Source: a virus. Taken from it: a stretch of 16,150 nt of DNA. The stretch lies in the UHGV virus genome UHGV-0095173; one strand, given 5' to 3'. Positions within the stretch are counted from its first letter, which is position 1; each line of letters opens with the position of its first letter. Shown in pieces: positions 1,173 through 16,095 of this stretch. Both the position numbers and the translations under genes were made by a program. The notes under the pieces were generated by a model. That model was not told the origin of the DNA and did not search any database. It worked only from the letters and a program-made list of their open reading frames with translations.

Positions 1173-1348
1173 GCTGCCACCTCCTGAATACGAGTAATAC
1201 GAACGTGCTTATAACCGCCTTTATTCGCCAGTAGTTGCGCAGTCGATTTAGCTGTTTCTGGACTGGTGCTAGTCATGGTGTAGTGAATGCCGACGGTGTT
1301 ACCGCGCTTGTTAACAGCGTATCCGTCGATCTGGAAGGTTTTACGCAT
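1169..1348 (-). CDS. hypothetical small protein (59 aa)
   Basis: Not in the ORF track. Hand translation: MRKTFQIDGYAVNKRGNTVGIHYTMTSTSPETAKSTAQLLANKGGYKHVRITRIQEVAA. ATG at 1348-1346 lies just downstream of the recombinase-like stop (1341-1343); its stop overlaps the next start (ATGA). Confidence 0.45.
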   Translation of the reverse strand: MRKTFQIDGYAVNKRGNTVGIHYTMTSTSPETAKSTAQLLANKGGYKHVRITRIQEVAA

Positions 1349-2219
1349 TTCCGACCTCCATTGCTAAACGGGACTGGATAGCTGCCGCTTTACTGCCTAA
1401 TTGCAGGTAAGTACGAGTTATCGCAGGGTTGCTATGACCCAGCATTTCAGAGGCCACTAATAGGCCCTGTTCGCCACCTGCGGACATGAGGTTAAAGGCG
1501 GCTATTTTGCGGCTTGAGTAGGCGCTCAGGCGCAATTTAGCGTTAATGAAACGGGTAAACCACGCCATGACGCCATGAAGTTTGCGCCAGATGGTTTGGC
1601 GAGTAACGCTACCTTCCAGACGTTGACAACGGTTACTTTCGATTTGAGAGCGGGAAAATACCAGGTCGTCCTCCACCAGATTCCGATCCTGACGGTCACG
1701 CAGCCGCTTGATAATGCCGGGGGGTAACTGTTTGGTGTCGTGCTTGACGTCAGCCTTAGCCACCAGCCCGAACACAATCGCCTGTTCTTCGTCGTTCATA
1801 TCGGCGGCCAGTTCATCACAGCCGATACTATCCCACTTCATGTAGGCGATATGGTCAGCGGCGAGCCGCGCGGCGTCCTTGCGCTGCTGGCGCACAATTT
1901 CAATACCTTTGCGGGTTGCCCGCGCTTCTGCGGCTTTGGTCTGTTTGGAAACGATAATTGTCGCCTGTCCAGTTTCCCAATTGATGCAGGAATAGCGCAG
2001 GTTGCAAACGTCGCTGGTACGCCAGCCGGTTACGGTCGCAATATCCCACCAGAGCAACACCCAATCGGGCTGTGTCTGCTGGATGCGCTCGCGTAGCTTG
2101 CGCTGCTCGTCACGGTCATAGACAGGGGTCATGGTGCGACTGCCCTTTGTGCTCGCCGCTTTAACGACATTGCCGCGCAGCTCGCGGGCTTTGGCTGTCA
2201 GAGTCTGGAGGTTAAACAT
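1341..2219 (-). CDS. tyrosine recombinase-fold protein (phage integrase family, catalytic domain, about 292 aa)
   Basis: C-terminal LGHSNPAITRTYL matches the tyrosine-recombinase box II signature (His and catalytic Tyr). Box I-like TGWRTSDVCNLRY. The usual HxxR appears as SSRK. Start placed at ATG 2219 (MFNLQ...) because GGAGGTG sits 4 nt upstream; the track's longer ORF begins at a TTG at 2312. Confidence 0.65.
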   Translation of the reverse strand: MFNLQTLTAKARELRGNVVKAASTKGSRTMTPVYDRDEQRKLRERIQQTQPDWVLLWWDIATVTGWRTSDVCNLRYSCINWETGQATIIVSKQTKAAEARATRKGIEIVRQQRKDAARLAADHIAYMKWDSIGCDELAADMNDEEQAIVFGLVAKADVKHDTKQLPPGIIKRLRDRQDRNLVEDDLVFSRSQIESNRCQRLEGSVTRQTIWRKLHGVMAWFTRFINAKLRLSAYSSRKIAAFNLMSAGGEQGLLVASEMLGHSNPAITRTYLQLGSKAAAIQSRLAMEVGNA

Positions 2220-2400
2220 GACGCACCTCCGGCACTGGCAGACGTGCGGCCAGAGACAAAATAAAGTGCGGCGCAAGGATGCGGCGGGCTTCGCGTTCGG
2301 TCGCAGCCTCAACGGACAGACGGCAAGGTTTGGCTTTTTTATCGTGGCGATTCAGCGCGAGAAAGCGCCAGGTGAATTTTGAGTGTGCGGATCTAGCCAT
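2212..2400 (-). CDS. hypothetical small protein (62 aa), first gene of the operon
   Basis: ORF track entry. AGGAG about 9 nt upstream of ATG 2400. Its stop overlaps the recombinase-like start (ATGTTTAA). Function unknown. Confidence 0.45.
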   Translation of the reverse strand: MARSAHSKFTWRFLALNRHDKKAKPCRLSVEAATEREARRILAPHFILSLAARLPVPEVRHV

Positions 2401-5040: not shown

Positions 5041-6270
5041 TTACACAACCAGCCTCAAGCCCTTATCGCCGCTGGTCTCCAGTATTTCGCCACACTCTGC
5101 GGCCTCGATAAAGTCCCCCCACCATTGCATTAAAACCCGGCGTTTTTCCAGATAGTCGCTACGGTTATAAACATTTCGAATCGCATCGGCGCTTTTGTGA
5201 GCGAGTGCAGCCTCAATCACATCAGGGTTGAACCCCTCGTCATTTAAAACTGTAGATGCCAACGCCCTGAACCCATGAGGAACAATCAGCCCTTTAAACG
5301 ACGTTTTGTGTATCCCGGCCTGAGTCGCACAGCGTGAGATCGGCTTATTTTCTTTTCGCCATGAGGGGAAAACATAATCGCAGCGCTTCCACTTTTCGGC
5401 CTCTTTAAGCACGTTTATAGCCTGGCTCGATAATGGGACTACGTGGGGGCGCTTTCCTTTCATCCGGCTTGCAGGGATTTGCCAGATTGAGTTATCAAAA
5501 TCAATCTCATTCCAGAGAGCGCCGCCAGCCTCCGAAGGCCGGACCATCGTAATGATCTGGAATAATAATGCCAGCTTTGATGGCTCCCATAAGCTCAACT
5601 CGTTCCATGCGCTTAAAAATTCGGGCAACCGCTCTTTCTGTAAAGTCGCTCTTGGCTCGTTTTTTTCAGCCGGGAATGCTTTACCAATTTTCGATAGCGG
5701 GTTGTGCTCAATAACCCCAATGTTTACCGCATAATCCATTATGGCGTTGATGGTAATAACCATTTTCGTAAGCGTTGATGGCCTTTCCCTGAAAGGTTTA
5801 AAAGCCTGAATAGTATCGGCTGCGTTTATTTTATGTACCGTGGTATGCCTAAAAATCGTGGAAAGATGCTTCAACGTCACATTGTGCGATTCAAGCGTGT
5901 TGCTTCTCGCACCTTCTTTAATCTTGATTTTTAGCCATTCATCGGCAACGGCCTGAAATGACTGCGCGTACATTTTACGCTGTTCATTCCTGGCATCTTT
6001 TTTGACTTCGTTCGGATCTATCCCTCGCGCTACCATACGGCGCAGTTTCGAACGTTCCTCCCTCGCTTCGGACAAAGTAAACTCCGGGTATCGTCCAATA
6101 GTATAGGTTTGTCTCTTCTTCGTTACCGGGTGTACATACCGAAAACGCCATGACTTACCGCCCCGGCTTGTGATGTAAAGCAACAAACCGAAACCATCGT
6201 GCAAACTGAAATCCTTGCCCTGTGCCTTCGCGCTTTTCACTTCGACGCTAGTTAGTGGCCTAACAATCAT
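5041..6270 (-). CDS. int: tyrosine-type site-specific integrase, P4-like (409 aa)
   Basis: N-terminal arm-binding-type domain (GKSWRFRYVHPVTKKRQTYTIGRYPEFTLSEAREE). C-terminal catalytic region with HGFRALAST and downstream Tyr (RNVYNRSDY). GAGG RBS 7 nt upstream of ATG 6270. Confidence 0.95.
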   Translation of the reverse strand: MIVRPLTSVEVKSAKAQGKDFSLHDGFGLLLYITSRGGKSWRFRYVHPVTKKRQTYTIGRYPEFTLSEAREERSKLRRMVARGIDPNEVKKDARNEQRKMYAQSFQAVADEWLKIKIKEGARSNTLESHNVTLKHLSTIFRHTTVHKINAADTIQAFKPFRERPSTLTKMVITINAIMDYAVNIGVIEHNPLSKIGKAFPAEKNEPRATLQKERLPEFLSAWNELSLWEPSKLALLFQIITMVRPSEAGGALWNEIDFDNSIWQIPASRMKGKRPHVVPLSSQAINVLKEAEKWKRCDYVFPSWRKENKPISRCATQAGIHKTSFKGLIVPHGFRALASTVLNDEGFNPDVIEAALAHKSADAIRNVYNRSDYLEKRRVLMQWWGDFIEAAECGEILETSGDKGLRLVV

Positions 6271-6484: not shown

Positions 6485-7705
6485 TTATCCTTTGCGGTTA
6501 GACCAGAAGTCGGCGTTTTGTTTGTTCAGGGAAGCGATGCTGGTCATGCCCATATTTGGACGTTGTGCATCGCCCGTGGTGCTGCGGGTGTTTCGCCCTT
6601 TGGCAATCTCTGACACGGCGTTAAACGCCATATCTACCGATTGCTTGGGCAATTTGCGGATATCCGCATCACCGACAACCTGGCGAACCAGTGTTTTGTC
6701 AGCGGCAGCCAGCACATCACGTTTGAACGCGGTCGGTTTCACCTTACGGCTCAGATCGATACCCGGGACGATAACTTCGGCACGATAAGCAGCGTCACCA
6801 GTAATCGTGGTTTCTTCTTCATCGTCCTCGCCGTCACCGGTCGGATTATCGTCAGGATTATTGTCGTTATCGCCCGTCGCAGTTCCTTCGAGCTTAGCCA
6901 GCAGGGCTTTGAGCAAGGTTTTGATATCGTCCTCGCCGTCGCCGGTTGGCTCTCCGCCCATTTCCGGCTTTTTGTCCGGCAATGGTTGCTGCGGTGAAAG
7001 GTTAATGTTGAGGTTAACGCCGCTCGGCAGATCCCCTTCGTCACCCGTTACCGCCGCTGGCGCAGAGTCCAGCAGTTCGTTCATGGTGTCAGCGTCACCC
7101 GTTTTGATGGCCGTGCGCATGCGGGTCCACCAGCTTTTCTTTTGATTTGCCATTGTGTCTCTGTCTCCAATTGCACAACGATTTCCGGCTCTGCCTTTGG
7201 GGACAAGAGCCACATGGTTTCCGGTAATATCGACCTGCTCGGCTTTACCTGGCTCGGTCTGCTCGTACTCCGCGTCATAGCCGCACGACACTTCACGCAG
7301 GCCATCTTCGATAAGCTGAATGGCGTTTTCGTCTTTGACGATAAGGTCAGCCAGCATCAAATCAGACTGATCACCAGTCCCGCGCCGAACGTTCTGAAGA
7401 TGCCCGACCGCAAGCTCTTTCCAGTTCTCGGGGTTGACCAGCCGCACATTCCCGTTTTCATCTTCAGGATGCAGGATCGTGATGCTCATCCCTTCGAATG
7501 AGGCGAGCGTGGCCGGATGGAATACCTGCTCAGGAGAACGCGTGACGACTATTTCACCGAACTTATCGGGTTTCAGTTTTGGCAGGTCATCAGCACCATA
7601 GAGCTGCTTACCCGTTCGACCTATCGGCACGTCTTTGCACAGCAGCGAGCCGTCAGCCAGCTGATAGCGGGTTTCCCCCAGCCGGGTGTAGAAGAAATAT
7701 TTCAT
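6485..7705 (-). CDS. phage head scaffold/protease-like protein (DUF2213-like, 406 aa)
   Basis: Follows portal and head-morphogenesis genes. Motif GNHVALVPKGRAG. Acidic, low-complexity C-terminal half with two PTGDGEDD copies. Start overlaps the upstream stop (ATGA). DUF2213 assignment is from memory. Confidence 0.75.
   Translation of the reverse strand: MKYFFYTRLGETRYQLADGSLLCKDVPIGRTGKQLYGADDLPKLKPDKFGEIVVTRSPEQVFHPATLASFEGMSITILHPEDENGNVRLVNPENWKELAVGHLQNVRRGTGDQSDLMLADLIVKDENAIQLIEDGLREVSCGYDAEYEQTEPGKAEQVDITGNHVALVPKGRAGNRCAIGDRDTMANQKKSWWTRMRTAIKTGDADTMNELLDSAPAAVTGDEGDLPSGVNLNINLSPQQPLPDKKPEMGGEPTGDGEDDIKTLLKALLAKLEGTATGDNDNNPDDNPTGDGEDDEEETTITGDAAYRAEVIVPGIDLSRKVKPTAFKRDVLAAADKTLVRQVVGDADIRKLPKQSVDMAFNAVSEIAKGRNTRSTTGDAQRPNMGMTSIASLNKQNADFWSNRKG
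6806..7051 (-). repeat. in-frame acidic repeat region inside the scaffold-like gene
   Basis: Near-identical 22-bp direct repeats at about 6821-6843 and 6927-6949 (atcgtcctcgccgtc[a/g]ccggt[c/t]gg), encoding PTGDGEDD twice amid a Gly/Asp/Asn-rich stretch. Confidence 0.6.
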
Positions 7706-8690: not shown

Positions 8691-10008
8691 TCTCGATATC
8701 CTCGTCGGTAATGGATGCCCCGATGCCGGTGACGTCAGAGTTTTCGCGCAGGTCGGTCATCGCCGCCTTACGCGTCATCAATCCGTCGCCCAGCGCGGTA
8801 CTGATCGCGTTGGTGGTGTTTACGGCCACCGTTGATCGGTCAACGTCTGACATTTGCCATAGCGGGTTAAACTCAAACGTGAAATCGTCCGGCAGCGGCT
8901 TTCCGAGTTCCGAGCGGTGCATAATGTCCAGTATCCGGCGCATCGGCAGTCGTAAGCGGCGCTCCTGCAATGAGCTCACCCGGTCGTAATAGTTGGCGAG
9001 GTCTGCATCACCAGTAGAGAAGCCTTTCGGGGATTGACCGAACAGGCGTACCAGCGGGATACCAACGGCACCGCTGATCTGCTCAGCAAACTGCGAAAGA
9101 ATGTCATCCAGACCACTAAAGCTGTACTGGTGGGTTTCGAACTTATCCCGCGAGTCCATGAGCGTCATACCTTCATTGCTCTGGAACTGGCGGATCAGGT
9201 CGATGTTCTTCAGCAACGCTTCGAACGCCGGGCCTCCAAGCGCGATAAGCTCGCGCAACTTCTCCACGCTATAGGTACGCAGATGTGCTTTGTAGACCAG
9301 CTGCGCCGCGCCGACAGTGGCGCTGTCGAACGCAGTAAGCCGATCCCAGATACGCTCTACAACCGACATTCCCCATTCGTTTTCGGTCATCTTCTGCTGG
9401 AATGGCAGCGTGACGCCATCAAAGCGGATCAGGCGGCTGTGATGGATGCGCCAGGCCGGAATGCCCGTTGCGGTGGTCACCACGTCGTAAAACTCAGGCT
9501 TGCCGAGGTCCGGCCCCATCTCTTTAATGCGGCGTGTCAGCACCGGGTTAATCATCCAGCGGTCGAGCGGGAGAATGCCCTTAAACTTGCCCTCGCCAAT
9601 GGTTTCGAGTCGCAGCGGGGTCATTGGTGCTTGCCCCTCGATCATGATGAAGCCGACCGCGCCGCCGTAGAGGCGCGACCATTTCAGCACGTCGTTCAGC
9701 GCATCCCAGATCTGCAACTCATCCAGTTGCGCTTCGAGGGTGCCACGGTCTTTGGCGTCAATCTCCGAAGTGATGCGAATGCCCTTTCGGGTCATATCGT
9801 CCGGGATAGCGTCGACCGCTTCACCGATAACCCACGAACCGCGATATGACCATTCCACCAGCATGCGGTTGCGGCTGGTGAAGTTCGCCCGGTAGGTCGA
9901 TGCAGAGTGCTGATTAGGCGTCTGCATCCCCACGCGGGCGACAAAGTTCTCATAGCCATCAGCGGTGGCCTGCGCCGTTCGCTGAGAGGCTTTCTTGTTT
10001 CGTGCCAT
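8539..10008 (-). CDS. phage portal protein (about 489 aa)
   Basis: Size and position directly after the large terminase; acidic, disordered C-terminal tail. Start set to ATG 10008-10006, which overlaps the terL stop (ATGA); the track's longer ORF begins at a TTG at 10035. Confidence 0.9.
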   Translation of the reverse strand: MARNKKASQRTAQATADGYENFVARVGMQTPNQHSASTYRANFTSRNRMLVEWSYRGSWVIGEAVDAIPDDMTRKGIRITSEIDAKDRGTLEAQLDELQIWDALNDVLKWSRLYGGAVGFIMIEGQAPMTPLRLETIGEGKFKGILPLDRWMINPVLTRRIKEMGPDLGKPEFYDVVTTATGIPAWRIHHSRLIRFDGVTLPFQQKMTENEWGMSVVERIWDRLTAFDSATVGAAQLVYKAHLRTYSVEKLRELIALGGPAFEALLKNIDLIRQFQSNEGMTLMDSRDKFETHQYSFSGLDDILSQFAEQISGAVGIPLVRLFGQSPKGFSTGDADLANYYDRVSSLQERRLRLPMRRILDIMHRSELGKPLPDDFTFEFNPLWQMSDVDRSTVAVNTTNAISTALGDGLMTRKAAMTDLRENSDVTGIGASITDEDIENAEDEAPPGIGELGDKPPEPPGGDPISNESTADSAGGRGYRKWSLRWFKR

Positions 10009-11450
10009 CAGGCCTGTCTCCCTAGCAGCTCCCAAATATCCATTGTTGTATCGGTCGGCGCGAACGCCATTATGAAAGCGTCGGCAATGTTAGGTGAGGG
10101 GATATCGCGCTTAGCCAAATCTTTCTTGCTTTCAACCATAACCCTACCGTTACGATCAAAGTCTCGGTGCGGGGTCGTCAGCTCAAGCTTTAGTTTCTCC
10201 AGGTGCGGGCACGATGAATCGATACTTATCAACTCATCAACAGGATATTCCTCTCCATTTTTCACCGCGTTGAACGTATTACGAAAGCGATCAGCTACCA
10301 GCCACCATGCCTGGGCTTTCAGATTGGCAAAGAAGTCTTTATTCGGAATGCCGTTATATTCAGAATCTGGCTCGTTCACACCAGCGCCAGCATTGAAGCG
10401 TTGATAATTAACTGGTCGTGAATAAGGATTTTCACGTCGTCTGTCTTCGTTAATTTCCGAGAATTTAGCACCAGCAGAAGCGCCAACACCAATGGAGTCA
10501 TAAACGATATCAGCACTTCTCTCTGTGGCTGCCTGATATGCCCGCTGGCAGCTTTTAAGAAGCTCGTCTTCTTTTGCCTTCCATTCATCAGCCCAATACA
10601 CAACGGAGCCATGACGATAAACATTGGAGCACTTATCCGCACCGCTATCGGCAACGTCGAAGCCTATTCGCTTTCGTCCGTTTGGCTCAAAACCAAGCAC
10701 CTTATGGGCATCTATTGCAGCCTCAATCCACGAAAGTTTAATAATTGCCGCGTCATCATCAGATTCGGGAACCCCCATATAAACGTGGTCAAACCCCTCC
10801 GGATCACGACGCTTTGCAGCCGAGATAACCTTAAGCATGGTGTCTGAGAGGAATGGGTTTTCGTCGTAATTGATTTTTCGCACCAACGTATCTTCTGGTG
10901 GATCAACAACGAAATTACGCCATACAAAGTCAGTCACCAGACCAGGGTTAAAAATAAACCAGCATTCAGATCCGCTTTTACGAATGGTTGGTTCCAGTAT
11001 CTTCCACTGGTATTCCGTTAGTGCATGGGCTTCTTCAAGCCACAAAACGCTGATACCTTCCAGGGATTTAATTTCTTCGATATTGCGCCATAAACCGTAA
11101 AACACGAATTCTGAGCCAGTGACCCGGTTGATAATTTTATTATTCAGAATTCGGAAGCGATGCCGCAGCCCAAACCGTTCAATCTGTATTTTGAGCAGGG
11201 TATAAACCGACTCTTCGATTTTGTTCTGAATTTTACGTGCGCAACAGAAACGCAGGTTGTATTTATTTGCCAGAAAGACAGCAAACCCAGCAGCATCCCA
11301 TGACTTTGACGATGAGCGCCCACCAAAAAGTACTTTATTTCGAGCCTGTGTCGTCCAGAAGTTCCTTAGAGCCGGATTCAGGGTCGGTTTGGATGTCAGA
11401 GTAGAAGTCATTAAGGTCACGATCTCCATTACCGTCATCAACGCCAGCAT
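10008..11450 (-). CDS. terminase large subunit
   Basis: Long ORF directly after terS. N-terminal ATPase-type region (KVLFGGRSSSKSWDAAGFAV is Walker A-like; LWLEEAH is Walker B-like). Start uncertain: the track ORF opens with GTG at 11453, first ATG is 11450, and other candidates are 11438, 11429 and 11411; all overlap the terS 3' end. Confidence 0.9.
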   Translation of the reverse strand: MLALMTVMEIVTLMTSTLTSKPTLNPALRNFWTTQARNKVLFGGRSSSKSWDAAGFAVFLANKYNLRFCCARKIQNKIEESVYTLLKIQIERFGLRHRFRILNNKIINRVTGSEFVFYGLWRNIEEIKSLEGISVLWLEEAHALTEYQWKILEPTIRKSGSECWFIFNPGLVTDFVWRNFVVDPPEDTLVRKINYDENPFLSDTMLKVISAAKRRDPEGFDHVYMGVPESDDDAAIIKLSWIEAAIDAHKVLGFEPNGRKRIGFDVADSGADKCSNVYRHGSVVYWADEWKAKEDELLKSCQRAYQAATERSADIVYDSIGVGASAGAKFSEINEDRRRENPYSRPVNYQRFNAGAGVNEPDSEYNGIPNKDFFANLKAQAWWLVADRFRNTFNAVKNGEEYPVDELISIDSSCPHLEKLKLELTTPHRDFDRNGRVMVESKKDLAKRDIPSPNIADAFIMAFAPTDTTMDIWELLGRQA

Positions 11451-12090
11451 CACGACGAAGGCGATCCGCTTCCAGAGACACTTTGTCAGTGGAGGCGAGC
11501 CGATGCTCTATAGATGCCTTTGTGAATTCCAGCGACTCAATGCGGGCCGTGTTACGGTGCATGGCTTTTTGCGCAGATGAAATTAGCTCGTGAAGATTAT
11601 TGGCGGTATCGCCATCAGCTATTTCAAGCTCAGTCTGCCAGCGGCCAATATTTTCAGCAGCGGTAAGGTTCGCCGCACGCAACCAGAAAAGCTCATCATC
11701 AAGAGTGAGCGCCTGAGCATCCTCGGTAATGGCATCAGATAGAAGCATTCGGCGTCCATAGCCACCATGCTTCAATGCGTTCTGATTTCCGGGTCTGGAA
11801 TTATAATGAGCGCGTTTCGTTTCTGGTGAGTTTGATGGTTTTGCGACTTCGCAGTTATCCACTAAGCCCGCTGGTGGCTTACTCTTTGCCACTTTCTCCT
11901 TTTGCGAATTCGCAGTTTTATTCGCACTTTTCTTTTGCGAATTCGCACTACCATTCGCAATTTTGATATAGCGCTTTGCAGTCGAGTAATTCAGTCCCTG
12001 CGCTTCGCACCATTCTTTGGGGGAAATGCCGGTTTTGGCATGTTCGGACAGGAACCGTTGCTGAAGCTCGCCCCAGTCCGGCTTTGCCAT
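11335..12090 (-). CDS. terminase small subunit (251 aa)
   Basis: N-terminal HTH-like domain; motif RPGNQNALKHGGY typical of Gram-negative phage TerS; immediately upstream of terL. AGAGGAAA RBS. Contains the ANSQK-encoding GCGAATTCGC repeat cluster. Confidence 0.85.
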   Translation of the reverse strand: MAKPDWGELQQRFLSEHAKTGISPKEWCEAQGLNYSTAKRYIKIANGSANSQKKSANKTANSQKEKVAKSKPPAGLVDNCEVAKPSNSPETKRAHYNSRPGNQNALKHGGYGRRMLLSDAITEDAQALTLDDELFWLRAANLTAAENIGRWQTELEIADGDTANNLHELISSAQKAMHRNTARIESLEFTKASIEHRLASTDKVSLEADRLRRDAGVDDGNGDRDLNDFYSDIQTDPESGSKELLDDTGSK

Positions 12091-12147
12091 GAATATTTCC
12101 TCTTAATGACATTATCGAAGCCCCTCAGTGAAGAGCTTCTGTAATGG

Positions 12148-12405
12148 CTACTTCGTTTTTGCTTCCGCTCTTTTACGGCGGCGCTCTTCTTTCTTCTCGG
12201 CGTTTGCCATGTCCATGAATGCCTGCATGATCGAGTTCCTCATCATGTAACTGACAAAGTGATGATTGACGCAGCCGTTGAGACGGAGTTGCTCGCCAAA
12301 CTGATCAACCGAGGCCAGCACTTCCATCATGCCCTTCTCGCCTTTCATGAACTCAGAGAAGTCTCGCCCCGCTCTGGAGGCGCATTCGATGACGCGATTA
12401 TTCAT
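12148..12405 (-). CDS. hypothetical protein (85 aa) translationally coupled to the KilA-N gene
   Basis: ORF track entry. ATG 12405 overlaps the KilA-N stop (ATGA). Lys/Arg/Glu-rich C-terminus. Confidence 0.5.
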   Translation of the reverse strand: MNNRVIECASRAGRDFSEFMKGEKGMMEVLASVDQFGEQLRLNGCVNHHFVSYMMRNSIMQAFMDMANAEKKEERRRKRAEAKTK

Positions 12406-12899
12406 CCTTGAAGCCCTGGGATCGTAATCTGCAGCTGGTTAGCCAGGGTATTAATCTCAGCGACCAGCACAGGCTTTGTATAGCGCCATGCAGCGAGGCC
12501 TTGTCCGCAGAAGCTCGCCATGTCTTTCTTCTGGTCAAACTCATGACACTTCATGTTGAGCTGCGCACTTAAGCTGTTGCGATGCTGAAGCTCTCCGGTG
12601 AAGTAGTCATCGAGGATTTTATAAGCTGCGTACTTGAACCCTGGGTTTAACCAGGCCGCATAATCGTAAGCAACAAACTTCCCGCCATAGGTTCCGCCAT
12701 GTACGCCGCGCTCAGTAAAAACCACAGATTCGTGGTTTTTCTCCAGCTCGGCTAAGAACTCTTTGGTCTGCTTGTTTCGCAGGTAGTGGTAAGGCGATTC
12801 AGATTCACTTTTACCACTGGCTTTCCACATATCAGTGAGGCAGATCATGCCATCTTCACCGATACGAATTGGTTGATTGAAGAGGGTTAATGATTTCAT
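12402..12899 (-). CDS. KilA-N domain protein (165 aa)
   Basis: N-terminal IRIGEDGMICLTDMWKA and later GGKFVAYDYAAWLNPGFKYAAYKIL resemble the KilA-N DNA-binding domain. Lies between the lysis cassette and terS. Confidence 0.7.
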   Translation of the reverse strand: MKSLTLFNQPIRIGEDGMICLTDMWKASGKSESESPYHYLRNKQTKEFLAELEKNHESVVFTERGVHGGTYGGKFVAYDYAAWLNPGFKYAAYKILDDYFTGELQHRNSLSAQLNMKCHEFDQKKDMASFCGQGLAAWRYTKPVLVAEINTLANQLQITIPGLQG

Positions 12900-13014
12900 A
12901 GCGTGTACCTACTCTTTGAAATGAACCTTTGCCGCACAGGAAACCAGCCCACCGAGGCTCGCCAGCACTAACTGGTATCCTCAAAGGCCCATTCCAAAGG
13001 GGCAGGTTCGGTGT

Positions 13015-13070
13015 AAAAAACATGCGTTGCGGTACGCATTTATTGCAAAAAGCCCCGCATCGCGAGGCTC
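13015..13070 (-). terminator. two tandem intrinsic terminators downstream of Rz
   Basis: Minus strand: stem AGCCTCGC / GCGGGGCT with loop GAT then TTTTTGC (about 13045-13070), followed by stem ATGCGT / ACGCAT with a 6-nt loop then GTTTTTT (about 13015-13040). The second hairpin also reads as a terminator on the plus strand. Confidence 0.55.
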
Positions 13071-13100
13071 ATTAAATGGACTTTGTGATTTGCAAAAAAA

Positions 13101-13580
13101 TTATTTCAGGCATTGCGTCCTGATGTATTCCTGCAGATAGCCAACCTGCTTCGTCACTGTGACGATTCGCTCTCTGAGGGTGAAATAATCCCGTTCAGCG
13201 GAGTCAGTAAGTCGGGGGCCGGTAACATCGCCCAGGCCGCCGGTGCTGGTCGCTCCGTTCGCGGGACATCTGGCGTTGACGTGCAGCCCACACTTGCCAG
13301 TGCGAACACAACGCTGCAAATCATCAAGCTGCTTTTTAGCATCAGCTAAGTCCTTCGTGTATTTGGCATCCAGCACCGCTGCATCACGCTGGCGGATCTG
13401 CATGTCTTTGATGGTGGCGTTCGCCTGGTTAAGATTCTTAATGGCTTTATCGCGCTGGTCTTTGTAGGTGATGGCGTTGCCGCGGTAGTGGTTAATAGCC
13501 CAAGCCATGGAAACCATCAGGCAGATAACGACAGCACAGATAATTGCTGTTAATCGGCTCACTAATCTAACCCCCAACAC
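13101..13580 (-). CDS. Rz: Rz-like i-spanin
   Basis: Strong resemblance to lambda Rz as I recall it (N-terminal TM segment, [31 protein letters not shown]). The track start at 13580 is GTG; the true start may be the GTG at 13562 (VSRLTAII...). Confidence 0.85.
13154..13342 (-). CDS. Rz1: Rz1-like o-spanin lipoprotein, embedded in Rz in another frame
   Basis: Lipobox ALASVGC followed by T; proline-rich; C-terminal [11 protein letters not shown] as in lambda Rz1; lies wholly inside Rz. Confidence 0.8.
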
Positions 13581-14107
13581 GCCAGCGCGCTTTCCTGGTC
13601 CCGTCTCTCAACCTGACCATAGCAGCCATTCTTCTGGCCTTTGGTTAGTCGGCAATCGCGGCCACCGTCTTTAATCCACCAGCGGATAGCTTCACAGGCT
13701 CCTTTCGTATCGCCAGCATTAATTCGCTTATAGAACGTAGACGGGAAACATTTTCCGGGGCCGATGTTATATGGGCAGAAAGAAGCGATACCCGCTTTCT
13801 GTGGTTCGGTCAGTGGTACTTTGATATTTCGGTCAACCCACGCCAGCGCCTTGTCGCGTTCAATGGCGTTTACCTGGGCGCATTTCTCAGCTGACAGCTT
13901 CATGCCCTGTACTACTGGCTTGCCATCAACCATTGTTGCACCACGGCAAATGGTCCAGAGTCCGCCGCCGTCGCGATATGCTGTCAAGCTGTTACCCTCT
14001 TTCTCATCCAGAAACTGATCGAGAATCACGGGTGCGGAAGCCCCGGCAAGAATCAAACCAACGACCGCTGCGCTCAATTTATTCTTCAGCTTTAGAGACA
14101 TAGCCAT
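13562..14107 (-). CDS. SAR endolysin (T4-lysozyme-like muramidase with N-terminal signal-anchor-release domain)
   Basis: N-terminal weakly hydrophobic Gly/Ala-rich segment [19 protein letters not shown] right after a basic stretch. Glu-8aa-Asp-5aa-Thr catalytic triad in [16 protein letters not shown]. Follows the holin. Confidence 0.9.
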
Positions 14108-14357
14108 TGCGCCGATCCTCCCGTTCTTTCCAGCGGAAATACCAGTTCACTGCACAGGTGATTACCGTGCATGCGATACCGACAATAATTGCCCAGTCGC
14201 TCAGGCTTAACCCTGCAATTCTGTCGGCCAACATCCAGGACACCTCTTTTGCTGTTTTTGCTGTTTCGGCATATGCCTTCGCTGATACACCGCAGCCGGT
14301 CAGCGTGGTGCCTGTTCCATATGAAAGTCTGCTGTAAATGGTGCTCATTCTGGTCAT
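14079..14357 (-). CDS. class II holin, pinholin-like (phage 21 S-like, 92 aa)
   Basis: Two predicted TM segments, the first Gly/Ser/Thr-rich. C-terminus NWYFRWKEREDRR resembles the S21 tail. MTRM dual-start motif. GGAGGTG RBS. Overlaps the endolysin start. Confidence 0.75.
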   Translation of the reverse strand: MTRMSTIYSRLSYGTGTTLTGCGVSAKAYAETAKTAKEVSWMLADRIAGLSLSDWAIIVGIACTVITCAVNWYFRWKEREDRRNGYVSKAEE

Positions 14358-14586: not shown

Positions 14587-15117
14587 ATGACAAAAAGGAA
14601 GTACCGATTTTATCATGCGGACAGGGGTAACTTGCTGAGCCCTGACATGACAATAATCCCTGTAAATGGCCTCTCTTCATTTGGAAAGCATTATCTCTCC
14701 CGGATAAATAGTGGAAATATGAGCGACGTGCTAGACGAAAATGTACAAAGAGAGATGCTGTATGAAAATGTGCGGATGGAAAATTTCCCATCCCGCCCAA
14801 GCCGATTCTCGTGCCTTTTTGGTGCGAACTCCATTCCTGAAGCGGAAAGCTTCGCCAGAAAGATAATCCCGCAACCGACCACCCCAATTAATATTTATGA
14901 AGTTTTTACTGAAAATTTTGTGATTCTCGATATGAATTGGATGGATTACATAACAACAGATTTCGGTAGTAGGGTTGAATATGCCCGGCAGTACTGGTAT
15001 TCATCAATTACCCAGCACGCCCCACTTACCGGCGATAGGATGATACCAACCCTGGAAGTCCTGCTGCCGCTTCCCGTGGAAGTAGGCAAGCAAGTCAGTA
15101 CTGTCGCTTTTGATTAA
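14587..15117 (+). CDS. hypothetical protein (176 aa), accessory (moron-like) gene antisense to the late operon
   Basis: ORF track entry. AAGGA RBS 6 nt upstream of ATG. Only sizeable plus-strand gene in the window. Looks AT-rich by eye. Sits between the late promoter and the holin. No family recognised. Confidence 0.6.
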   Translation: MTKRKYRFYHADRGNLLSPDMTIIPVNGLSSFGKHYLSRINSGNMSDVLDENVQREMLYENVRMENFPSRPSRFSCLFGANSIPEAESFARKIIPQPTTPINIYEVFTENFVILDMNWMDYITTDFGSRVEYARQYWYSSITQHAPLTGDRMIPTLEVLLPLPVEVGKQVSTVAFD

Positions 15118-15471: not shown

Positions 15472-16095
15472 TTAACGTGTGACCGCATTCAAAATGTTGT
15501 CTGCGATTGACTCTTCTTTGTGGCATTGCACCACCAGAGCGTCATACAGCGGCTTAACAGTGCGTGACCAGGTGGGTTGGGTAAGGTTTGGGATTAGCAT
15601 CGTCACAGCGCGATATGCGGCGCTTGCTGGCATCCTTGAATAGCCGACACCTTTGCATCTTCCGCACTCTTTCTCAACAACTCTCCCCCACTGCTCTGTT
15701 TTGGCTATATCAACCGCACGGCCTGTACCGTGGCAATCTCTGCATCTTGCACCCGGCGTCGCGGCACTACGGCAATAATCCGCATAAGCGAATGTTGCGA
15801 GCACTTGCAGTACCTTTGCCTTAGTATTTCCTTCGAGCTTTGCCACACCACGGTATTTCCCCGATACCTTGTGTGCAAATTGCATCAGATAGTTGATAGC
15901 CTTTTGTTTGTCGTTCTGGCTGAGTTCATGCTTACCGCAGAATGCAGCCATTCCGAATCCGGCTTGTGATTGCGCCATCCCCATAGCAGCCATCACATCA
16001 GTACCGGAAAGAGAGTCAGAAGCCGTAGCCCGTGGTGAGTCGCTCATCATCGGGCTTTTTGGCGAATGAAATTTAGCTACGCTTTCGAGTCTCAT
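15472..16095 (-). CDS. Q: late-gene antitermination protein Q (lambda-type, 207 aa)
   Basis: Sequence MRLESVAKFHSPKSP... with zinc-binding CRDCHGTG...CGRCKGVG appears essentially identical to lambda Q from memory. GGAGAAGG RBS. Confidence 0.95.
   Translation of the reverse strand: MRLESVAKFHSPKSPMMSDSPRATASDSLSGTDVMAAMGMAQSQAGFGMAAFCGKHELSQNDKQKAINYLMQFAHKVSGKYRGVAKLEGNTKAKVLQVLATFAYADYCRSAATPGARCRDCHGTGRAVDIAKTEQWGRVVEKECGRCKGVGYSRMPASAAYRAVTMLIPNLTQPTWSRTVKPLYDALVVQCHKEESIADNILNAVTR

Follow-up and report, generated by a model that had tools for sequence, protein, structure and literature searches.

In the late region of the viral genome UHGV-0095173, the 16,150-nucleotide (nt) stretch that was analysed (hereafter, the window) carries a pair of overlapping genes between Rz and terS, one encoding a 165-amino acid (aa) KilA-N protein (12402-12899, minus strand) and the other an 85-aa protein that we call the partner (12148-12405, minus strand). 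A structured RNA leader of ~125 nt (13039-12907, minus strand) precedes the pair. We read the locus as a modular late-operon cassette in which the pair may act, by analogy, as a late DNA-binding regulator of antirepressor type, a reading that we hold as a whole to be slightly better than an even bet. The pair itself, as described in the first-pass annotation of the window, is real and correctly placed between Rz and terS. That annotation also took the gap between Rz and terS for an accessory slot, and indeed P22 rha, HK620 hkbK-N and ES18 gene 79 lie at the same place.

The 165-aa protein is the equivalent of HK620 hkbK. Its assignment to the KilA-N family held in a profile hidden Markov model search of Pfam, in which residues 9-101 matched PF04383 with 59 bits against a cut-off of 23.8 (E 4.8e-16) and the C-terminal residues 109-161 matched ORF11CD3 (PF10549, E 2.4e-13). 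The protein combines an APSES-like DNA-binding fold with an ORF11CD3 helical hairpin; its sequence gave only chance matches in the PDB. This composition is that of the 'Bro network', the proteins of which are described as domain-swapping regulators (PMC10111431): a network N-domain (KilA-N) is joined to a network C-domain (ORF11CD3), and the domains swap among relatives, as the same slot and leader also carry the combinations Phage_pRha+ORF11CD3, P22_AR_N+ORF11CD3 and KilA-N+P63C.

The partner, the equivalent of HK620 hkbL, is a real gene under selection, to judge from its conservation, because it matches phrog_875 over its full length (residues 1-85 of 85, E 7.7e-52), its substitutions relative to seven relatives pile up at the third codon position (e.g., 5/3/16 and 18/16/32 at positions 1/2/3), and its family comprises 133 clusters at 90% identity, of which the named ones are all from Enterobacterales. 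A profile search of 1.8 billion cluster representatives returned only 21 partner matches. In the AlphaFold2 (AF2) model (pLDDT 92.6), the protein is composed of three helices (3-20, 26-42 and 48-84), the last of which bears a basic, charged C-terminal tail rich in Lys, Arg and Glu. The earlier description of the open reading frame (ORF) as Lys/Arg/Glu-rich applies, by inspection of the sequence, mainly to the last 16 residues. The partner matched no family in Pfam, NCBIfam or PADLOC and no sequence in the PDB, and Foldseek searches of the PDB and BFVD gave nothing below an E of 0.1, with generic helical bundles only. Similarity to the N-domain of T5orf172/MUG113 proteins extends over its N-terminal ~60 residues, in which the motifs RAG..F/YS.F and GC..HHFV are found. 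The matches are weak but consistent, namely to phrog_4284 (E 1.8e-6) and, in the profile search, to the proteins P0131 (E 1.6e-5) and P0132 (E 1.2e-4), both of which carry T5orf172 and MUG113 at the C-terminus. Furthermore, one gene for a partner-like domain joined to T5orf172 stands next to a KilA-N+P63C gene within a set of tail genes and adjoins an immI-like Arc/Bro-N region; this neighbour would link the partner fold to KilA-N proteins once again. Iyer et al. 2002 reportedly counted T5orf172 among the domains of the phage Bro network. Four residues, C8, C45, H48 and H49, are invariant or nearly so in the close partner family. A Cys/His metal site made of these residues was considered and rejected, as distant T5orf172-fused relatives lack C8 and one of them also lacks C45 and H48.

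Several comparisons support the view that the two genes form a unit, and that they occur as such at different genome positions. The stop-start overlap noted before was confirmed as an ATGA at 12402-12405 (minus strand), where the partner ATG (12405-12403) lies over the KilA-N TGA (12404-12402), and an ATGA or GTGA overlap or a 2-nt gap was found in all seven loci checked, i.e., HK620, PhiR49_1, HK97, HK022, mEp235 and two Klebsiella phages. None of the junctions compared shows a well-spaced Shine-Dalgarno sequence ahead of the partner. Among IMG/VR loci collected through the leader, the partner lies behind 23 of 23 KilA-N+ORF11CD3 genes and all five KilA-N+P63C genes, but never behind Rha, HNH, P22_AR_N, T5orf172 or the remaining KilA-N cargo that follows the leader. 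The two classes of upstream KilA-N protein are only 23-27% identical to each other, whereas the partners are 67-92% identical (81-92% for intact copies of E. coli phages, 67-68% for Klebsiella copies and 69% for the frameshifted HK97 copy). In the Klebsiella phages RAH1 (KilA-N+ORF11CD3) and ST11-VIM1phi8.1 (KilA-N+P63C), the partners are nearly identical, with one difference counted by eye in the alignment, and both units lie among the tail genes. The co-occurrence, the retained junction and this different position all speak for the two-protein unit that had been suggested from the overlap. The 85-aa ORF is intact in all close relatives; it is frameshifted at the C-terminus in HK97, is reduced to 14 codons in one Salmonella copy, and is absent behind those KilA-N+ORF11CD3 homologues that share 51-63% identity.

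These comparisons also bear on an alternative that we consider unlikely, namely that the two genes are functionally independent and that the 85-aa gene stays beside KilA-N only because recombination moves the whole block. It draws on the partner sequence, which follows the host genus (E. coli versus Klebsiella) and not the KilA-N class, on the KilA-N+ORF11CD3 homologues at 51-63% identity (phiEt88, Cronobacter and Enterobacter), which have other or no small genes downstream, and on the ATGA overlap as such, which is common between unrelated neighbours in lambda-like phages (PMC8022706). However, phages of E. coli as well as of Klebsiella keep the partner and the junction while the upstream gene is exchanged for a distant KilA-N gene with another C-domain, the partner is never found behind the other cargo of the same slot, and the downstream neighbours of the pair vary freely. 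The T5orf172-fused copy beside a KilA-N+P63C gene, which occurs in a different arrangement, argues in the same direction, i.e., for a two-gene unit.

Two further arrangements were observed around such units. In Klebsiella-type phages (L007, 3536-4868; L137, 5181-6495), the KilA-N/partner unit adjoins an immI-like region among the tail genes that consists of two Arc genes, a Bro-N+P22_AR_C gene and a repressor and is reminiscent of the P22 ant region. On a Salmonella Kottbus contig (L144, 60-3534), KilA-N+ORF11CD3, P22_AR_N+ORF11CD3, KilA-N+ORF11CD3 and KilA-N genes, four members of the Bro network, stand in a row around the lysis genes, and here the partner gene ends after its 14 codons at an apparent recombination joint.

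The pair recurs at ~91-94% DNA identity in HK620 (hkbK-hkbL), PhiR49_1, Stx2 phage 1717 (gp49-gp50), phage 2851 and ECP1; in E. coli prophages the identity reaches 96%. A 1,151-nt query reaching from the start of terS across the pair and the leader into the 3' end of Rz matched ~350 of 5,426 complete E. coli genomes over at least 80% of its length and another ~1,200 in part. The five named phages share with the window the 165 and 85 aa, the ATGA, the location behind Rz and a leader that is the same or related, and differ from it in nothing of substance, but their downstream neighbours and terminase types differ. Since the terminase and head modules downstream of the pair are not the same among its carriers, the pair moves independently of these modules. 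In HK97, HK022 and the mEp phages, the same slot after Rz is occupied by a 242-267-aa KilA-N+P63C gene, the product of which has P63C instead of ORF11CD3 and is 23% identical to the window protein, followed after a 2-nt stop-start gap by a member of the same partner family (81-89% identical in HK022 and mEp235, 69% in the frameshifted HK97p61). A divergent copy of the same leader, with a loop-bulge pair of its own (see below), precedes the genes of HK97, HK022 and mEp235.

An intrinsic terminator is predicted just after the Rz stop (hairpin 1; 13047-13068, minus strand). By pattern scan and fold, hairpin 1 has a stem of 7 base pairs (bp), GCCUCGC/GCGGGGC (13068-13052, loop GAU), and a run of five U (13051-13047). 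The first-pass annotation had described a double terminator at this place; hairpin 1 is a good predicted terminator, whereas the second hairpin is the leader hairpin P0, which mostly lacks a U-run in relatives. In 81 of 90 distinct variants, a terminator-like hairpin with a U-run and a stem of varying sequence precedes the leader by no more than 100 nt, and a terminator is annotated at the equivalent place in mEp235 and ES18. Terminators inside late operons are considered to halt transcription without antitermination (PMC8022706). A promoter of the pair's own had also been suggested as possible, with 12900-13014 as the proposed place; a scan limited to the sigma-70 consensus found no sigma-70-like site on the coding strand from 11900 to 13300, and the proposed place turned out to be occupied by the conserved structured leader instead. 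A candidate promoter seen by eye before P0, TTCAC(A/C)-N16-17 followed by an A/T-rich hexamer, recurs among the leaders and was rejected for lack of the key -10 positions. The terminators lie upstream of the pair, and none is present between the partner stop and terS; with no promoter found either, the pair does not show the layout of a moron with its own promoter upstream and a terminator downstream. The 3' end of Rz together with the terminator (13049-13116, minus strand) gave a weak match to the Rfam family isrJ (14.5 bits, gathering score 37), which rests on the terminator sequence GAGCCUCGCGAUGCGGGGCUUU.

This layout is difficult to reconcile with a toxin-antidote or abortive-infection module, in which the KilA-N protein would harm the cell or an incoming phage, the small protein would neutralise it, and the pair would serve prophage defence or exclusion: defence genes must be expressed in the lysogen, whereas a terminator directly precedes the pair and the scan gave no promoter. 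A small second gene so tightly coupled does resemble toxin-antitoxin gene pairs, P1 KilA is lethal, the defence protein BstA has a KilA-N domain, and the 165-aa protein gave a partial PADLOC match to the candidate PDC-S22 (E 1e-8, 32.6 bits). The best stretch of that match, residues 60-90 against profile positions 100-130 of 281, spans only ~30 residues of the shared KilA-N fold. P1 KilA has the N-terminal KilA-N domain in common with the window protein but is of a different architecture: no KilA-C domain was found in the 165-aa protein, in which only KilA-N and ORF11CD3 were detected in Pfam at E up to 1, so the toxicity of P1 KilA cannot be transferred to it by homology. In addition, the partner resembles no known antitoxin family in the databases searched above, the pair does not classify as a type II toxin-antitoxin system, and single genes with no partner also occupy this slot behind this leader. 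We therefore regard the defence module as quite improbable and retain the regulatory cassette.

The leader is composed of the hairpin P0 with a six-U run (13015-13039, minus strand) and a long irregular hairpin with the stems P1-P4 (12907-13007, minus strand; fold energy -73.8 kcal/mol, z -3.4). P0 has the stem AUGCGU/ACGCAU, in which 13039-13034 pair with 13027-13022, the loop ACCGCA (13033-13028) and the U-run at 13020-13015, and in this variant it matches the terminator pattern; its homologues in P22, ES18, HK620, POCJ13 and HK97 (GCGC-loop-GCGC) mostly have no U-run. At the base of the long hairpin, ACCUGC (13007-13002) is predicted to pair with GUAGGU (12912-12907), thereby covering the Shine-Dalgarno AGG of the KilA-N gene (12910-12908), the core of which is predicted to be paired with a probability of 0.999 in the window variant and a median of 0.97 over 72 variants. 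RNAalifold recovered the long hairpin from a MAFFT alignment with compensatory changes in 12 of 25 pairs. After realignment of the leaders with R1, a covariance model built from that alignment, 95.2% of the alignment cells were paired and 17 of the 25 pairs were changed on both sides, whereas slid controls were 36-50% paired with at most 5 pairs changed on both sides. R1 also matches the divergent leaders before the KilA-N genes of HK97/HK022 and RAH1, as well as a second leader in ECP1, ahead of an HNH gene, and one ahead of Ant in POCJ13. Through its G-U pairs, the fold is strand-specific, the reverse strand scoring 14-27 bits versus 92-119.

The two hairpins are predicted to contact each other. 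A six-nt bulge on the 3' side of the long hairpin, GUGCGG (12932-12937, minus strand), contains UGCGG, which is complementary to CCGCA of the P0 loop (13032-13028). At least 5 contiguous Watson-Crick pairs between loop and bulge are possible in 80 of 82 distinct variants, which fall into four covarying loop/bulge classes (CCGCA/UGCGG, UCUCAC/GUGAGA, UCACAC/GUGUGA and UCGCAU/AUGCGA); a fifth, UUCUCG/CGAGAA, was read by eye from the HK97 leader. Controls with mismatched classes reached 6 bp in 0.8% of trials, and of the P0 loop bases with a predicted partner in the bulge, 95% remain free in the local fold. Because the complementarity is kept in nearly all variants through covarying classes, it indicates that the P0 loop and the bulge form a pseudoknot. 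Taken together, the comparisons show the leader as a covarying RNA with a predicted pseudoknot that ends at the start codon. It reached no gathering score in Rfam, with rimP (20.1 bits, gathering score 47), isrJ (14.5 bits, 37) and DUF805b (14.1 bits, 35.6) as the best scores, and the C4, isrK and Pistol models gave no match even at E up to 10. A pistol-like ribozyme, in which a hairpin loop likewise pairs with an internal loop, was rejected on this negative result for the Pistol model; the topology of the pistol fold also differs from that of the leader. A 55-aa ORF across the leader (12856-13023) was rejected as a gene, as HK620 and POCJ13 carry 2- and 3-nt indels there.

An RNA of the same sequence has been detected in infected cells. 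P22F, an 89-nt small RNA in P22-infected Salmonella, was reported in 2026 (PMC13397905), and its sequence is that of the long hairpin of the leader, with its 5' end inside the 5' arm and its 3' end 6 nt before the rha start; the equivalent stretch of the window is 12906-12993 (minus strand), where the sequences agree except near the 3' end. The intergenic region is unusually constant: its 201 nt are 99.5-100% identical among phages with flanking genes that are 92-96% identical, and the 120 nt at its 3' side share 95% identity with the DNA that precedes another gene, P22 rha. It is very unlikely that the stretch is no functional RNA and serves only as a 'boundary' homology anchor for cargo swapping between phages, a role for which its constancy and its position before many unrelated N-domains speak, with the shared ORF11CD3 C-domain as a possible 3' anchor, but which does not account for compensatory changes that keep the stems of divergent leaders, loop-bulge pairing kept through five sequence pairs, a strand-specific fold, or the accumulation of the leader RNA in P22 infection. 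The anchor role and the RNA role are not mutually exclusive.

A degenerate leader pattern drawn from eight phages, which forces some positions to be invariant in the resulting set, occurs in at least 120 contigs of IMG/VR and in 30 genomes that represent species, almost all of them from Enterobacterales. The leader always ends 10-20 nt before an ATG. The genes behind it encode Rha+ORF11CD3 (53), KilA-N+ORF11CD3 (23), another KilA-N type (12), HNH_3/AP2 (11) and KilA-N+P63C (5), the remainder being P22_AR_N+ORF11CD3 and others; T5orf172 genes are also among this cargo. Several phages have two or more leaders (L066, L089 and L092; L009, 2148-2263; L013, 219-341), each with a different cargo: in ECP1 they stand before KilA-N and HNH genes, and in POCJ13 before Ant (between lysozyme and Rz) and Rha. 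At the P22 locus (L011, 1546-2151), the annotated start of rha (ORF201) lies inside the leader hairpin, and the Shine-Dalgarno and ATG conserved in all other cargos are found 23 codons downstream (L011:1615), at the ATG where ES18 gene 79 starts and 6 nt before which P22F ends; by this comparison, the P22 rha annotation is probably too long. The pattern also occurs on short metagenome-assembled genome contigs labelled Cellvibrionaceae, Nanosynbacter and Collinsella (L155, L156 and L168), which are probably mis-binned contigs of enterobacterial phages.

In the reading that we prefer, the cassette of these enterobacterial lambda-like phages would comprise, in order, a terminator, a structured leader, a Bro-network DNA-binding gene (KilA-N+ORF11CD3) and the translationally coupled 85-aa partner. 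The upstream terminator would insulate the cassette from transcription that arrives from upstream and, as the scan gave no promoter, transcribing it would fall to Q-modified, terminator-resistant RNA polymerase alone, during late lytic growth. The folded leader would then hide the Shine-Dalgarno, and translation of KilA-N would need unfolding or processing of the leader; the 5' end of P22F inside the 5' arm would fit a cut that removes the anti-Shine-Dalgarno strand. The partner, which has no Shine-Dalgarno of its own, would be made by termination-reinitiation at the ATGA in a fixed ratio to the KilA-N protein, and may work with the KilA-N domain, the sole part common to both kinds of upstream protein. 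The pair would thus be neither a lysis nor a packaging component but probably a DNA-binding regulator of antirepressor type, acting on phage DNA, on a co-resident prophage or satellite, or on host DNA. The antirepressor-type role is our best guess by analogy with the Bro network.

Several points weigh against this reading. First, none of the domains of proven antirepressors (Bro-N, ANT, P22_AR_N, P22_AR_C and AntA) was found in the 165-aa protein in Pfam, and such domains are present in other cargo genes of the same slot. Second, the partner is not generally required by KilA-N proteins, because it is missing not only from the homologues at 51-63% identity but also from the KilA-N classes C2 and C10 behind the same leader. 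Third, the host-genus pattern of the partner sequence is also compatible with a host target for the partner. At last, the occlusion of the Shine-Dalgarno is predicted from thermodynamics, P22F may represent a decay intermediate, the promoter scan covered one consensus, and physical interaction, DNA binding and antirepressor activity are properties that we infer for the pair. A bolder proposal, which we put forward tentatively and consider rather unlikely as a whole, is that the leader represents a regulatory RNA of a new, pseudoknotted class by which translation of potentially harmful genes of the Bro-network and HNH types is gated in late operons of enterobacterial prophages, with the five loop-bulge classes as specificities akin to those of the heteroimmune c4 RNAs of P1 and P7, with processed leader RNA of the P22F type from one prophage opening or closing, in trans, same-class leaders of co-resident prophages, and with KilA-N and its partner as the two-subunit effector that would be released.

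Among known systems, P22 rha (ORF201) with P22F shares the slot and the leader, and Rha has the C-terminal ORF11CD3 in common with the KilA-N protein; it differs in its N-domain, which is Phage_pRha instead of KilA-N, and in having no coupled partner. Rha is said to inhibit phage growth in hosts deficient in integration host factor (IHF; Henthorn and Friedman 1995). For the regulation, the nearest analogies would be P1 c4-icd-ant and Gifsy-1 IsrK-anrP. In P1/P7 c4-icd-ant and Gifsy-1 IsrK-orf45-anrP, a processed or structured RNA directly upstream of an antirepressor-type gene controls translation, and in P1 a small ORF is translationally coupled to a larger one (in part after PMC10111431 and PMC13397905). 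In contrast, the gene order is reversed in the window pair, with the large gene first, and the Shine-Dalgarno is predicted to pair with the leader's own 5' arm, with the loop pairing within one molecule; the leader matched neither the C4 nor the isrK model of Rfam.

The genes have been in databases as hypothetical proteins since the HK620, HK97 and HK022 genomes, and in the phages closest to the window they are named only 'KilA-N domain-containing protein' and 'hypothetical protein'. We found no paper on hkbK, hkbL or the PhiR49 pair in the literature and no publication behind the PV3405xx records. What appears to be new is the dedicated partner of two KilA-N classes, the link of this partner to T5orf172 N-domains, and the pseudoknotted leader that underlies P22F and extends across the family. 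Of moderate interest by itself, the gene pair is less novel than the leader, which corresponds to a small RNA detected by experiment and may define a new RNA family. Genes for KilA-N, Rha and Bro proteins rank among the commonest phage genes of unknown function, and Stx-converting phages also carry the pair; hypothetical genes thus become testable hypotheses, in which a subset of KilA-N proteins has a dedicated, coupled partner and the slot is governed by a conserved leader.

All late genes of this part of the window are encoded on the minus strand together with the pair, namely Q (15472-16095), holin (14079-14357), lysozyme (13562-14107), Rz (13101-13580, PF03245), terS (11335-12090, phrog_370) and terL (10008-11453). 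On the opposite strand, a 176-aa DUF2441 ORF (14587-15117, plus strand) lies between Q and the holin gene and is possibly a moron in the usual slot after Q. Farther downstream, a 409-aa tyrosine integrase gene with Arm-DNA-bind_3 and Phage_integrase domains (5041-6270, minus strand) is co-oriented with the late genes and directly follows the head-maturation protease gene (6485-7705), at a place where a related E. coli prophage (L010) has capsid genes. A second integrase-like ORF is found at 1341-2312 (minus strand), and the ORFs between the two integrases could not be annotated. One possibility is that a late gene here harbours an embedded satellite, as in PMC10111431; another is that a truncated prophage ends here beside another island.

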